From Candidatus Thorarchaeota archaeon SMTZ1-45 (GTDB lineage Archaea; Asgardarchaeota; Thorarchaeia; Thorarchaeales; Thorarchaeaceae), in the NCBI GenBank assembly GCA_001563335.1, contig LRSL01000092.1, forward strand, positions 1 to 36,229: a stretch of 36,229 nt of DNA, read 5' to 3'. Under the pieces are notes generated by a model, which saw nothing but the letters and a program-made list of their open reading frames with translations, did not search any database and was not told where the DNA came from. The translations under genes were made by a program, and so were the position numbers. Positions 8,974 to 12,291 of the stretch are shown here, piece after piece; position 1 is the stretch's first letter; each line of letters begins with the position of its first letter.

Positions 8974-9600
8974 CTATTTCTTGCAATATCTGAAAGTGCA
9001 TCTCTTATCTCCTGCTGCTATCGTTTCATTTCGCGAGAATTCTATCCAATCTTCAATAAGATAAGCTATAATCATGTCATAATCGCATAGTATAGATCCC
9101 AACTCAGGCTTCCCTGCCTCTCTAAGGATATCGAAGTAGAAACAATTTTGAATATCAAAACCAAAACAATCCTTTTCGTTCTCCACCTCTACGACTTGGA
9201 AATAGTCATTATCATAATTCGCAGCATTTCCCTTTTGGACCCATTTAGTGAATTCATCCCATGGATTATCTGATTGTTGTATACTTGCTACTTCTGTCTT
9301 CAAGTAATCTAAAAGCATGCTATGATATATGGAAATCGCAGTTTCTTTCAACGCATTGAACGAAGCTCTAACTTCACAGAGAACATCATCTAGTGCCATC
9401 AAGAAAAGTGAGTTTATACCATGCCTCTTTGCAAGTAAATCTGGCATCATATGTTCGTAATTGTTATAGTGGATCTCGAATTGTCTACTAAAGAGCTTGT
9501 GCATTGCTTCACCTTTATCACCAAATTGCTTGTTTAGTTCCTTCAATGTTAGCTCTGAGAAGAAATCGATAAGTTGTTGAGTTTGCTCATCTTGAGCCAT
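8974..9600 (-). CDS. L-2-amino-thiazoline-4-carboxylic acid (ATC) hydrolase-family protein
   Basis: C-terminal FDIQNCFY...PELGSILCDYD...RNETIAAGDKRCTFRY pattern with three conserved Cys. ATG at 9600 preferred. Confidence 0.75.
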   Translation of the reverse strand: MAQDEQTQQLIDFFSELTLKELNKQFGDKGEAMHKLFSRQFEIHYNNYEHMMPDLLAKRHGINSLFLMALDDVLCEVRASFNALKETAISIYHSMLLDYLKTEVASIQQSDNPWDEFTKWVQKGNAANYDNDYFQVVEVENEKDCFGFDIQNCFYFDILREAGKPELGSILCDYDMIIAYLIEDWIEFSRNETIAAGDKRCTFRYCKK

Positions 9601-9690
9601 TTTCAAATCACATTTTACTTTCTTATTCAAAATCTAAGTTTCTGATTACCCTTGATATGCTTGTCTATGTTTAATTTTACTCTTATGAAT

Positions 9691-9707
9691 AGTCACAATA
9701 TGTGACT
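9691..9707. promoter_or_regulatory. Palindromic operator candidate AGTCACA-ATA-TGTGACT
   Basis: Perfect 7-3-7 inverted repeat between divergent genes, with an extra TGTGAC half-site near 9714. Confidence 0.55.
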
Positions 9708-9737
9708 TCTTTATGTGACCCTCAGAAGTGGCTTCGG

Positions 9738-9745
9738 TATATATA
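9738..9745 (+). promoter_or_regulatory. TATA box candidate for the small-ORF array
   Basis: TATATATA about 33 nt upstream of ATG 9778, consistent with archaeal promoter spacing. Confidence 0.5.
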
Positions 9746-9777
9746 CTAAATCTGAGCAGTATTTCTTGTGAAATATC

Positions 9778-9885
9778 ATGGCTCTAACAACTAACTCACG
9801 AAACACATCTGTGCTAAAGAACATGAAGGACAGAAGTATAACTACTGAAGCCCTGACTTATGCCTATATGACTGTACTAAGGTGA
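9778..9885 (+). CDS. Micropeptide P1 (35 aa), TxA[IL]TxAY family
   Basis: MALTTNSRNTSVLKNMKDRSITTEALTYAYMTVLR*. Upstream TATA; motif shared with P2 and P3. Confidence 0.6.
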   Translation: MALTTNSRNTSVLKNMKDRSITTEALTYAYMTVLR

Positions 9886-9892
9886 TAGAGAA

Positions 9893-10021
9893 ATGGTCTA
9901 TACTGAGCAAGATGTCTGTTGGATTTTTACAAGTACTGCTTTGCATAGTGACTGGTCACAAGGTGGTCACAAAACTGGTCAGTTAGTATCAGAAACACCA
10001 TATCTTGTGACCAACCTATAG
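9893..10021 (+). CDS. Possible small ORF (42 aa)
   Basis: MVYTEQDVCWIFTSTALHSDWSQGGHKTGQLVSETPYLVTNL*. SD-like AGGTGA lies 7 nt upstream; only a weak motif echo (FTSTAL); overlaps the TGGTCACAA boxes. Confidence 0.25.
   Translation: MVYTEQDVCWIFTSTALHSDWSQGGHKTGQLVSETPYLVTNL
9953..10013. repeat. TGGTCACAA boxes: two direct copies and one inverted
   Basis: TGGTCACAA at 9953-9961 and 9964-9972; TTGTGACCA at 10005-10013; partial CTGGTCA near 9975. Confidence 0.7.
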
Positions 10022-10037
10022 GAAGGTGTGAAAGATT

Positions 10038-10133
10038 ATGGCTCTTTTAAAATACGGGCTCCAATTTGCGTGGTTTAACAAAAATGCACTTCAAACTAGT
10101 GCCATTACTCATGCTTACGCCTACAGGAGGTAA
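10038..10133 (+). CDS. Micropeptide P2 (31 aa), TxA[IL]TxAY family
   Basis: MALLKYGLQFAWFNKNALQTSAITHAYAYRR*. SD-like GGAAGGTG upstream. Confidence 0.62.
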   Translation: MALLKYGLQFAWFNKNALQTSAITHAYAYRR

Positions 10134-10138
10134 GTTGC

Positions 10139-10207
10139 TTGACGAAAAAGAACAATTCTCGCACCATCTCCACTCGTGCAATCACTGACGCCTACTTCAG
10201 GAGGTAG
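10139..10207 (+). CDS. Micropeptide P3 (22 aa), TxA[IL]TxAY family
   Basis: TTG start 7 nt after AGGAGGT (the end of P2). MTKKNNSRTISTRAITDAYFRR*. Confidence 0.6.
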   Translation: MTKKNNSRTISTRAITDAYFRR

Positions 10208-10366
10208 TTTCACTGCAGGTCCTTCTCAAACACTATAATTTTGGTTTGAAATATCAACAAAATCTCGATTTTAAGTACAGGACACAAAATAATGCTTTGA
10301 GAATAATGTTTATATCCAAACCATTACTGAACAATGGTTGGTTGTATAAACCAATATCATGAAGTG

Positions 10367-10489
10367 ATGACAATGACACGGTCGAATTTCCTCTCAACAG
10401 ATATGTTCTGTTTGACAAGTGAGGACAAGACGATTTGTGTTCAATCATTTGGTGCATTGTGTAATGCTGGTCTAAGTGTGTCAGATTAG
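10367..10489 (+). CDS. Possible small Cys/Ser/Thr-rich ORF (40 aa)
   Basis: MTMTRSNFLSTDMFCLTSEDKTICVQSFGALCNAGLSVSD*. TATAAA about 20 nt upstream and GAAGTGA at the start. Confidence 0.3.
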   Translation: MTMTRSNFLSTDMFCLTSEDKTICVQSFGALCNAGLSVSD

Positions 10490-10560
10490 AGCCACGCGAT
10501 TTCACATTATAGTTACATCGGACAAATCTCCTATCTCCGAATCTCCTAAGATGGGGATTC

Positions 10561-10599
10561 TGCATCGGCCCTCGTATGTGTGATCCGAGGGCTGATGCA
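10561..10599 (+). other. GC-rich 14-bp RNA hairpin
   Basis: TGCATCGGCCCTCG / 11-nt loop / CGAGGGCTGATGCA with one G-U pair and no downstream T-tract. Confidence 0.7.
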
Positions 10600-10620
10600 A
10601 TTCAAAGGAAGTTGACAGAC

Positions 10621-10725
10621 ATGAAACGTGAATCGAAAATCAGAATCAAGGTAACCAAAAAAGCACATCTTGAAAATACATCAACTTCGATTTCTTACGA
10701 AGATCACAAACAAAAGATTGAGTGA
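10621..10725 (+). CDS. Possible small basic ORF (34 aa) directly upstream of the MFS gene
   Basis: MKRESKIRIKVTKKAHLENTSTSISYEDHKQKIE*. Stop is 9 nt before the MFS ATG. Confidence 0.3.
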   Translation: MKRESKIRIKVTKKAHLENTSTSISYEDHKQKIE

Positions 10726-10734
10726 TGATATTTC

Positions 10735-12291
10735 ATGAGTAGAATGAAATCCTTTCTAGGCTTACCAGATGCTACTGACAAAGTCATAAGACTAGCAAAA
10801 ATAATGGGAATATTGGGACCACTTGCCAATCTAACATTCTTCCTTTCAACTACATTCTATGTGATCTTTGTAGCAGAAGCTCTTGGTGGCGGTCCCGGTA
10901 TGTATCTCCAAGGTATTGGTCTAGTTGGAACTCTTGTGGTTGTACAGATGGTTGTGCAGATACTTCTCGACTACCCAACTGGCGCTGTTGGAGATTGGAT
11001 TGGACAGAGGTACATTATAGCTGGCGCAAATCTATCATATGGTGTTGCGTACATTCTAGTTTCCTTTGTGACAGTTGATACACCCTATATCACCCTAGTG
11101 GGCATCTATGCACTACAAGGATTTGCACAGTCACAATCAAGCGGTGCTTGGGGAGCTTGGTTTGATAACAACTACAGAGTTGCAATGCCTGGTGATTCAG
11201 ATAGGAAGCAATATGGAGTGTTCTGGGGGCGAATGGGTATGATAATGCAGATAGTTGCTACTGCCTCTTTGATTCCAGGTAGCATTCTAGCTGCTATATT
11301 CTCAAGAGCTTGGGTTTTCCAACTGCAAGGAGTCTTGGCCTTTCTCTTTGCTCTGGTTGTATTCAGATTAGTTCGAGATTTCCCCGAGGTTGAAGAAAAG
11401 AGAGCTCAGAATGGTGAACGTCCCGATCTAGGAGAGTATTTCTCAATCTTGAAGGGTGGTATCAGCTATCTTTTCAGACATGCATTTGTTAGGTATATTG
11501 CAGTTGGAACAATGTTAGCTGTTAGTTCAATCATGGTGTGGGGGAATCTTATTTTATTCCCAATGTACTACCTATATCTAATCACCGATGTTGGAGTCGC
11601 CAGCTTCAGGACGTTATTATTTATTCCTGGAATTTTCTCACAAGAACGGTCTGGCGTATGGTCTCGAAGGTTTGAGCCAAAGAAGTGGATCCCACGGTTT
11701 CGTCTGATGCAGACATGCGGGTTCATCTTTTTCTGGGTATTTGCAGCAATCATGTTGCTATTTCCACCTGCAGCACCCAGCACGAACGTATTGACTCTTT
11801 ACTGGCCATTCACAAGTATTGAACTCTTAACACTTCCTGCAGAGAATTTAATCCCGATTGTTCTCATATTCACAACATTCGTATCTACCAGTTTCTTCGG
11901 AGGATTTGCTGAAATCCTAACCCAAAGAGTATTGTTGGATGTCATTCCAAATAGAATTAGGAACTCTATGTATTCTCTCTTTCCAACGGTGGCAACTCTA
12001 CTAGCAATTCCACAGATTGCACTCTTTGGATGGTCGATCACTATAATTGGATTCCCATTGACTCTAGCCGCATGTGGTTTGATTTCATTTATGGGAGTAT
12101 TGCTCATAGTCCATGGCTTTAGACATGAACCTCCTGAACCTGACGGTGAAACCTGGGCGAATGGTGATGCCGTCTTGCCTCCAAAAGAGCCTGAACTTGG
12201 TGGAGCTGAGAAGCTATCCGAAGAAACTCTCCATAAAACCGAAGCAGGTGGGTTGGAGGAGATCGCAGAAGGAATTCTCCTAGAGGATTAA
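10735..12291 (+). CDS. MFS transporter
   Basis: DYPTGAVGDWIGQR motif A, SGAWGAW, about 12 TM segments and an acidic C-terminal tail. Confidence 0.88.
   Translation: MSRMKSFLGLPDATDKVIRLAKIMGILGPLANLTFFLSTTFYVIFVAEALGGGPGMYLQGIGLVGTLVVVQMVVQILLDYPTGAVGDWIGQRYIIAGANLSYGVAYILVSFVTVDTPYITLVGIYALQGFAQSQSSGAWGAWFDNNYRVAMPGDSDRKQYGVFWGRMGMIMQIVATASLIPGSILAAIFSRAWVFQLQGVLAFLFALVVFRLVRDFPEVEEKRAQNGERPDLGEYFSILKGGISYLFRHAFVRYIAVGTMLAVSSIMVWGNLILFPMYYLYLITDVGVASFRTLLFIPGIFSQERSGVWSRRFEPKKWIPRFRLMQTCGFIFFWVFAAIMLLFPPAAPSTNVLTLYWPFTSIELLTLPAENLIPIVLIFTTFVSTSFFGGFAEILTQRVLLDVIPNRIRNSMYSLFPTVATLLAIPQIALFGWSITIIGFPLTLAACGLISFMGVLLIVHGFRHEPPEPDGETWANGDAVLPPKEPELGGAEKLSEETLHKTEAGGLEEIAEGILLED

Follow-up and report, generated by a model that had tools for sequence, protein, structure and literature searches.

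The window analysed here, a stretch of 36,229 nt from Candidatus Thorarchaeota archaeon SMTZ1-45 (GenBank accession no. LRSL01000092.1), is the whole of contig C92 in a 3.54-Mb assembly of 119 contigs with 42% G+C and 88% completeness. It carries three short open reading frames (ORFs) on the same strand, P1, P2 and P3 (Table 1), that almost certainly form a real coding family. Their predicted products belong to one undescribed micro-protein family which, as judged from genome and database searches, is confined to a family-level clade of Thorarchaeota and matches no described family. A preliminary description of the window had aligned these ORFs at their C-termini, and the coordinates, sequences and core codons that it quoted were all correct. 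The best explanation overall, which we put forward tentatively, is that the ORFs encode clade-specific micro-proteins that would belong to one regulon and act in trans.

The C-terminal motif shared by the three ORFs occurs well above chance expectation. A six-frame search of the genome (7,087,888 residues) gave five matches to the pattern T.A[IL]T.AY.{1,6}R* (asterisk, stop), three in the window and one each on contigs C86 and C15, and every match closed a small ORF. The number expected from residue frequencies was 0.0027, and none was found in each of five first-order Markov shuffles. The 8-residue core alone was not enriched (5 observed vs ~1.8 expected; 2-3 in shuffles); what exceeds chance is the core placed where a small ORF terminates. 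A hidden Markov model (HMM) built from six copies gave nine matches at E <= 2e-5 among 165,463 stop-to-stop segments, and the next two matches (E 0.09 and 1.0) were array members too. After inspection, the genome was found to hold 11 family members, in arrays at six loci (C92, C83, C86, C47, C15 and C76). The family consensus at the C-terminus is [ST]-T-[DE]-A-[IL]-x-[HY]-A-Y-x-Y-R-R before the stop. The N-terminus is mostly MAL(A/T)(K/T), and the MAL start first remarked on in P1 and P2 is thus family-wide.

Purifying selection at the level of the predicted peptide is strongly supported by comparison across relatives, as the largely synonymous variation of the core codons had suggested. In 70 distinct cores of 27 nt (nine codons), entropy was 0.66, 0.26 and 1.58 bits at codon positions 1, 2 and 3, and the invariant Ala was written by all four codons (GCT 37, GCA 21, GCC 8, GCG 4). 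The ratio of nonsynonymous to synonymous differences per site (pN/pS) was 0.37 for P1 (8 distinct orthologous sequences), 0.43 overall for P2 (13 distinct orthologous sequences), and 0.34 for C-termini of the YFRR type, to which P3 belongs (20 distinct sequences). In the C-terminal parts of P1 and P2 (past codon 15 in P2) it was 0.28. Each window ORF has direct orthologs elsewhere with the arrangement kept, and orthologs of P3 in other species begin with ATG (e.g., L092, L094 and L099). The frames were uninterrupted, mostly over 30-42 aa, in all family matches listed, which come from 16 genera (the three genome searches gave 69, 359 and 313 more).

The promoter and leader of P1 are conserved at the nucleotide level, as are its first 15 codons (synonymous divergence, pS, 0.19), and the P1-P2 spacer contains a conserved non-coding element; this raises the alternative of a repeated DNA or RNA regulatory element with incidental open frames. 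The segment also behaves as an assembly-breaking repeat: contigs of public DNA assemblies that contain this organism break and stack over ~9690-9825, with a summed depth of 152 at 9760-9781 vs ~9 in the flanks. This alternative is scarcely credible given that the C-terminal halves vary at third positions, that invariant residues use all synonymous codons, that pN/pS is low in the C-terminal parts of P1 and P2, that the frames are open in every listed match, and that Rfam gave no match at the gathering threshold or at E <= 1. The pile-up fits a multi-copy, near-identical promoter/5′ module. The locus is identical in assemblies X2 and X3 across 9763-10281.

Profile searches of whole genomes detected the family in all 24 genomes examined of the same genus, with 3-12 matches each, and in none of 16 others sampled. 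A 67-row profile had matches in 78 of the 85 other genomes from this GTDB family, covering 16 of the 17 genera of the class, and none in the one genome of the class's second family. A phylum-wide draw placed it in 71 of 76 genomes of its own GTDB family and in 0 of 224 genomes from 29 other families. The number of matches per genome ranged from 3 to 13. A degenerate, back-translated DNA motif, searched over 185,579 species represented by one genome each, returned 32 matching stretches, titled Thorarchaeota (25), Promethearchaeota archaeon (2) or uncultured archaeon (5) (all metagenome-assembled genomes); in viral contigs this motif had no match.

Among 1.84 billion representative proteins, 56 matched at E <= 1e-3, nearly all of them 29-46 aa long. 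Two long repeat proteins among these, P0005 and P0029, were set aside as spurious multi-stretch matches. The preliminary description did not recognize the motif from any described family, and profile libraries bear this out: with 11 family members as queries, E-values went no lower than 0.17 in Pfam, 0.094 in NCBIfam and 0.16 in PHROGs, PADLOC gave no match, and the 67-member profile had no significant match among PDB chains (best E 0.2). The ESM Atlas returned unnamed small clusters alone (score 0.90, low recognition) and was uninformative. No description of the family was found among the papers listed in literature searches, made without supplementary files by terms for Thorarchaeota or Asgard small proteins, for ribosomally synthesized and post-translationally modified peptides (RiPPs) and by motif strings.

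The 123 distinct members had a median length of 33 aa (range 21-38), a median net charge of +5, a pI of 10.3 and a grand average of hydropathy (GRAVY) of -0.69; Cys was present in just five of them. Family alignments showed a conserved C-terminus and a variable middle, and no hydrophobic stretch such as marks membrane-active peptides was visible in them. In the 67-row alignment (P1 numbering), A25 was invariant and T23, A29 and Y30 were at least 90% conserved. AlphaFold2 (AF2) predicted a helix over residues 23-34 of P1 with a per-residue confidence (pLDDT) of ~80 (86 and 77 in the two last blocks, residues 21-35), and a sister peptide reached a pLDDT of 91 across residues 21-30. On this predicted helix, the near-invariant T, A, A and Y would form a small-xxx-small (A-x-x-x-A) face flanked by Tyr, and two Ala residues four positions apart beside Tyr suggest a tight helix-helix contact face. 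The commonest ending was YRR (55 of 123). A proteasome-gate motif of the HbYX type was considered and dropped, since endings with a penultimate Tyr (TYR 9, MYR 8, RYR 2, LYR 2) total 21 among the 15 commonest and are no family trait.

The arrays also share upstream sequences (Table 1). The TATA box reported ahead of P1 in the preliminary description was found as TATATATA and is the predicted promoter of P1. In a 39-sequence upstream alignment, mostly of P1-type regions with a few rows from other ORF types, the P1-type module reads TAGTCACA-N3-TGTGACTTC-N4-TGTGACCC-N6-GTGGCTTCG(C/G)TATATATAC-N-..TATTTCTTGTGAAATATC-ATG. The exact palindrome GTCACA-N3-TGTGAC occurs five times in the genome, four times ahead of P1-type ORFs (C47, C83, C86 and C92). 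P1 and P2 are separated by 152 nt, the 3′ 89 nt of which are conserved. Among 27 other genomes of the genus, 22 carry this P2 element, in 1-3 copies each; it contains three TGGTCA(C/G) repeats spaced ~11 nt as well as the SD-like (Shine-Dalgarno-like) sequence that had been pointed out before P2. Its conservation appears even by eye, with no wobble pattern seen, the P2 start lies constantly 98 nt past its beginning (13 distinct orthologous sequences), and the sequence TGTGAAAgATT-ATG before P2 resembles the P1 leader. At four loci from other species (L103, L104, L110 and L112), the element fronts, in place of a peptide gene, a gene of at least 165-198 aa (..MWNTWD.LW.GGFTQGV..; frames open at the locus ends). 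Because it also fronts another gene, the element was interpreted as a regulatory module (promoter, operator or leader) rather than as coding for a peptide. A spacer ORF (9893-10021, 42 aa) was rejected as a fourth peptide, its frames differing between two locus types over the same DNA.

Table 1. Features around the P1-P3 array and its neighbours in the window.
Feature	Position (nt)	Strand	Description
ATC_hydrolase-family gene (PF14196)	8974-9630	-	Divergent neighbour; also in L037
Palindrome GTCACA-ATA-TGTGAC	9692-9706		Perfect; taken as operator of the P1 promoter; kept in P1-type rows of the 39-row upstream alignment
Third half-site TGTGAC(CC)	9714-9719	+	3′ of the palindrome; conserved as TGTGACCC(T) in the P1-type upstream alignment
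TATA box TATATATA	9738-9745	+	Predicted promoter; inside conserved GTGGCTTCGgTATATATAC; column identity ~0.8-0.99 in 39 upstream regions
Short leader TATTTCTTGTGAAATATC	9760-9777	+	Abuts the P1 ATG; inverted repeat TATTTC/GAAATA; without GGAGG-type SD
P1	9778-9885	+	35 aa; ATG start, TGA stop; MALTTNSRNTSVLKNMKDRSITTEALTYAYMTVLR; subtype ..T[TQ]ALTYAYMTV.R*; HMM E 8e-16
Conserved non-coding element (P2 element)	9949-10037	+	Ahead of P2; interspecies identity up to 94%
TGGTCAC repeats	9953-9959, 9964-9970	+	Inside P2 element
TGGTCAG repeat	9976-9982	+	Inside P2 element
Inverted TGTGACCA	10006-10013		P2 element; half-site same as that of the P1 operator
CCTATAGG	10015-10022	+	Inside P2 element
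SD-like AAGGTG	10023-10028	+	Upstream of P2, inside P2 element
P2	10038-10133	+	31 aa; ATG start; MALLKYGLQFAWFNKNALQTSAITHAYAYRR; end ..QTSAITHAYAYRR*; HMM E 2.5e-12
P3	10139-10207	+	22 aa; TTG start, TAG stop; MTKKNNSRTISTRAITDAYFRR; YFRR subtype ..ISTRAITDAYFRR*; HMM E 1e-7
TTTATAT box	~10308-10315		Conserved leader (10308-10734) before the MFS gene
CU-rich anti-SD-like GGACAAATCTCCTATCTCC	10520-10538		MFS leader
Hairpins	10539-10560, 10562-10598		MFS leader; compensatory base changes between species
MFS_1 transporter gene	10735-12291	+	518 aa; Pfam MFS_1 E 1e-17; orthologs follow the array in other species

Since the P1 operator and the P2 element share GGTCAC/GTGACC half-sites, a common regulator is proposed. 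Near-exact copies of the operator and TATA layout were also seen at C108:9664 (L059), ahead of a paralog of the window's major facilitator superfamily (MFS) transporter without peptide genes, at C8:24483 (L058), ahead of an unannotated membrane protein, and at C1:21192 (L060), ahead of a 417-aa bactofilin-domain gene. This last gene sits just downstream of a winged-helix gene of the HTH_45 family, whose product is a candidate regulator of the regulon.

Within the arrays, the sequence AGGAGG at 10125-10130, formed by the Arg-Arg codons of P2, lies 8 nt ahead of the TTG of P3 and would serve as its SD sequence, in agreement with the preliminary description. The gap from stop to ATG was 1-7 nt at all 36 junctions between family ORFs (6 nt in 21), and the arrays are predicted to be translationally coupled, with the Arg-Arg AGGAGG acting as SD of the following ORF. 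Array contexts fall into at least seven syntenic types that recur between species, with no universal neighbour. At a C76-type locus (L005:2760-2867 (+), equal to C76:16259-16366), an extra 35-aa ORF ending in ..RTLDSLYYDFARIK* lies ahead of the family ORF; DNA matching it aligns in L040, L052 and L057, and it may be a distant family paralog. Locus types A, B and E (34 distinct junctions) carry, immediately 3′ of their final family ORF, a member of a second small family, designated the EAT peptide, of 37-41 aa, acidic or Ser-rich and ending in ..EEVL(L/M/A)(L/M/W)EAT*. It was located at L004:680-889 (-), which corresponds to C15, and also at C86, C47, L007, L010, L013 and other sites. No EAT peptide follows P3 in the window, and locus types C, D and F are likewise without it. 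In four of seven locus types, the last family ORF is tightly coupled to an EAT peptide or to an MFS_3-type transporter gene, and in types D, F and G the array-terminal family ORF has no tightly coupled cistron after it.

In the mechanism that we favour, the arrays would be expressed as short polycistronic units, and one DNA-binding regulator would probably switch all of them together with at least one MFS paralog. Each product would consist of a basic, disordered N-terminal half and a conserved C-terminal amphipathic alpha-helix, and would act in trans as a small adaptor or regulator protein. The C-terminal helix may dock on a partner helix while the basic tail adds electrostatic contacts; this docking step is possible, and we hold it with less than even confidence. 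Putative partners are products of the same regulon, either MFS transporters or the acidic EAT peptides of sister arrays. The P3-type product appears to be selected for itself, because the terminal ORF in type G is uncoupled downstream and is under purifying selection; selection at array-terminal ORFs was assessed for this type, the ortholog group of P3. Small regulators of transporters such as AcrZ, SgrT, MgtS and KdpF are co-transcribed or co-regulated with a transporter gene, as would be the case here. Regulators of this kind are mostly membrane-embedded, whereas the Thorarchaeota peptides are predicted to be soluble and basic, and their binding to an MFS protein is hypothetical.

Several observations weigh against a trans-acting role of this kind. 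The AF2 models of whole peptides had a mean pLDDT of only 66-70 and a predicted template modelling score (pTM) of ~0.3, the remainder of the chain being of low confidence, and in a model of a read-through fusion between a family peptide and the EAT peptide the family helix was not packed onto the EAT helix. The pS of the first 15 codons of P1 contrasts with 0.61 for the remaining codons, and therefore part of the conservation acts on nucleotides and not on the peptide. The coupling in four of seven locus types suits a cis-regulatory role equally well, and the conservation close to the stop codon and the length of ~30 aa also suit an arrest peptide.

These last points lead to the alternative of cis-acting regulatory nascent peptides, in which the C-terminal 13 residues would slow termination inside the ribosomal exit tunnel and thereby gate the next cistron, whether a further family ORF, the EAT peptide or an MFS transporter. 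The gated step would be termination-reinitiation or read-through of a TAG stop codon, and the trigger could be a small molecule handled by the transporter. The exit tunnel is roughly 30 aa long, and leader peptides ahead of efflux genes are an established bacterial paradigm (cmlA, ermC, tnaC). Consistent with such a role, the family peptides (21-38 aa, median 33) are conserved up to the stop codon with a variable middle, the SD sequence of the next cistron lies within the last codons of the previous ORF, the spacing being 1-7 nt at all 36 junctions, and ORFs of the P3 subtype end 5 nt before MFS_3 at every junction found. Like TnaC, the fungal arginine attenuator peptide and the ErmCL/CmlA leaders, they have 20-35 codons and a conserved C-terminal dozen up to the stop, and at sister loci an efflux-type (MFS) gene follows the ORF immediately and is coupled to it. 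They differ from these leaders in having many paralogs per genome, a conserved N-terminus and some uncoupled terminal ORFs, and show no similarity to any described leader in Pfam or NCBIfam. In the window, 528 nt with a TATA-like box of their own and a structured leader intervene between P3 and the MFS gene. The arrays of types D, F and G end uncoupled, yet type G is under purifying selection, and serial paralogs, up to 13 matches per genome, with a conserved MAL.. N-terminus are unexpected for a tunnel-acting peptide. A pure cis-leader role is weakened because there are conserved terminal ORFs without a tightly coupled cistron, and we regard the nascent-peptide alternative as unlikely, though the most interesting of the rivals.

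A variant of this alternative turns on the stop codon between the family ORF and the EAT peptide. In an unbiased scan, the EAT frame was the same as that of the family ORF at 24 of 25 junctions, and the intervening stop was TAG at 23 of 25; the stop-to-start gap varied by multiples of three. Stops at the 34 distinct EAT junctions were TAG (32), TAA (1) and TGA (1), and those at 38 inner array junctions were TAA (24), TGA (11) and TAG (3). Full-length genome matches from nine genera nearly all carried exactly one TAG, the exceptions including one TAA and one TGA. TAG closes 36% of ORFs of at least 250 aa in the genome. The in-frame TAG pattern could reflect a fixed spacing for reinitiation or programmed read-through to a fusion of ~70 aa. 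From it one can picture a Thorarchaeota-specific translational control device, in which a helix in the exit tunnel would tune termination and so choose between reinitiation on the next cistron, a family ORF or an MFS exporter, and TAG read-through; we consider this quite unlikely, and we are equally doubtful that read-through in such a device yields a ~70-aa fusion of micro-protein and EAT peptide.

Recoding of the in-frame TAG as pyrrolysine was rejected, as the components that it requires were not found: in this 88% complete genome the PylS and PylD models (TIGR02367 and TIGR03911) scored at best 19.6 and 19.8 bits against cut-offs of 178 and 150, and no tRNA-CUA was present among the 26 tRNAs called by ARAGORN. 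Six database proteins (P0020, P0022, P0028, P0048, P0053 and P0054) show Q at the position of the stop. Their reading as fusions through a CAG codon was discarded because the DNA examined has a stop there; nine of nine full-length metagenome loci carry TAG at this position, and the Q is probably a gene call made with TAG as Q. ARAGORN also called a tRNA-Sec gene (anticodon TCA) at c[24794,24884] in the genome, and the organism probably uses selenocysteine. The C-terminal tails of MFS proteins resembled the EAT peptide by eye, and this likeness was dropped when an HMM of 32 EAT tails, run against 58,099 ORF C-termini, found three free EAT peptides only (next E 4.3).

The charge of the two families suggests a further arrangement, in which the family peptides would be cationic toxins and the acidic EAT peptide their neutraliser, in the style of a toxin-antitoxin pair or a propiece, with the orphan copies in the window as extra toxin paralogs. 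Multi-copy tandem small genes are typical of small-toxin loci, the median net charge of +5 and pI of 10.3 would suit a cationic toxin, and the acidic or Ser-rich peptide always follows in types A, B and E. We judge this arrangement very unlikely: the family peptides are hydrophilic (median GRAVY -0.69) and have no membrane-spanning or strongly amphipathic segment, the PADLOC and PHROG searches gave no match, the window array and types C, D and F have no EAT partner, and the loci are syntenic, stable and not mobile, with none in viral contigs. A likeness to leaderless bacteriocins (aureocin A70, garvicin KS) exists in that both have two to four tandem genes for related, cationic peptides of ~30 residues without a leader. 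Unlike the bacteriocins, the Thorarchaeota peptides are hydrophilic and have no genes for ABC transporters or immunity among the neighbours scanned, and their loci are core, syntenic and clade-wide, whereas bacteriocins are strain-variable.

The preliminary description had suggested ties to the two genes flanking the array, the divergent ATC-hydrolase-family gene and the downstream MFS transporter. The window-type layout with both genes recurs in L012/L037 and partly in L043. The first tie held only in part: the divergent synteny is conserved in some species only, and L043 has a 3HCDH gene where L037 and the window have ATC_hydrolase. For the MFS, the support is circumstantial and consists of synteny in other species, an operator-sharing paralog, and coupling to MFS_3 in sister loci. 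The paralog on C108 lies directly behind the near-exact operator-promoter and is 60% identical to the window MFS. Sister loci have a P1-element-P2-YFRR layout, or a shortened P1-YFRR layout, followed by an MFS_3-type gene that is unrelated to the window MFS (BLASTP E = 1); the YFRR ORF ends exactly 5 nt before it at 8/8 junctions found, two pairs of which share identical peptides. Against the tie stands the distance in the window, where a conserved gap of 528 nt with its own TTTATAT box, leader and hairpins separates P3 from the MFS gene, which is therefore probably a separate transcription unit. The MFS leader had no Rfam match at E <= 1. On present evidence, the window MFS_1 gene probably belongs to the regulon of the arrays. 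A co-folding run of a YFRR peptide (A6) with its coupled MFS_3 protein (A7) scored 0.00 against a mark of 0.32 and was given no weight either way.

The window MFS is a member of a multi-copy subfamily with acidic C-terminal tails, which has six matches in its own genome and up to seven elsewhere, and which occurs in 73 of the 85 other genomes in the GTDB family. The window-type MFS was absent from 3 of 7 genomes without the peptide family and from 9 of 78 with it, a weak and phylogenetically non-independent association that was not used as evidence. Pfam families among the 37 neighbour proteins scanned at the loci were MFS, ATC_hydrolase, 3HCDH, SOR, AhpC, GNAT and PolX, and also a YbaK-like editing domain, hemerythrin, aminotransferase and zinc ribbons. 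Array neighbours include desulfoferrodoxin and AhpC/TSA.

The proximity to transporters bears on one more alternative, that the ORFs are precursors of RiPP-like or signalling peptides which would be matured by enzymes encoded at a distance and leave the cell through the co-regulated MFS transporters. Thr, Tyr and His, on which certain radical-SAM RiPP chemistries act, are abundant in the C-terminus of the family, and chemistry on these residues is conceivable. In multi-copy RiPP precursors the leader is conserved and the core is hypervariable; a conserved C-terminus with a variable middle is a different pattern. The genes are small, precursor-sized, multi-copy and dispersed, as in the prochlorosin, NHLP and Nif11 precursors with their many scattered paralogs, and members of two unrelated MFS families lie next to them or are coupled to them; one of these families (MFS_3) is named a transmembrane secretion effector. 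In contrast to those precursors, it is the C-terminus and not a leader that is conserved, and no maturase-type Pfam family was present among the 37 neighbour proteins. Because so few members contain Cys (5/123), chemistry of the lanthi-, sacti-, ranthi- or thiopeptide kind is excluded as a trait of the family; no NCBIfam precursor model matched, there is no signal or double-glycine leader, and the export of unmodified 30-aa peptides by an MFS protein is unusual. Precursors of this kind are thus distinctly improbable. In translation, an ORF with a radical-SAM-like CxxxCxxC motif was seen ~4 kb from the array on C86. RiPP clusters have been reported from across the Asgard archaea (PMC12144867).

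Of the four functions named in the preliminary description (signalling peptides, RiPP-like precursors, ribosome-arrest leaders and small protein regulators), none is proved; the RiPP and pure cis-leader roles are weakened, and micro-proteins of one regulon acting in trans are the reading that we retain.

No known prokaryotes are closer relatives of eukaryotes than the Asgard archaea, most of whose lineage-specific genes lack annotation. Gene callers often overlook short ORFs of this kind; many family ORFs are below 30 codons, a cut-off in common use. The family described here, with 3-13 copies per genome, marks a whole Asgard family; a promoter and operator of its own are predicted, and it is linked to two families of transporters. 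For archaeal micro-proteins it provides a test case, as well as a defined regulon and operator for finding the transcription factor, and perhaps a case in which archaea regulate termination, reinitiation or the read-through of stop codons. Were the translational control device real, archaea would have their first described nascent-peptide sensor system. Should the function prove modest, annotating the family would still alter the reading of dozens of 'intergenic' regions per genome.

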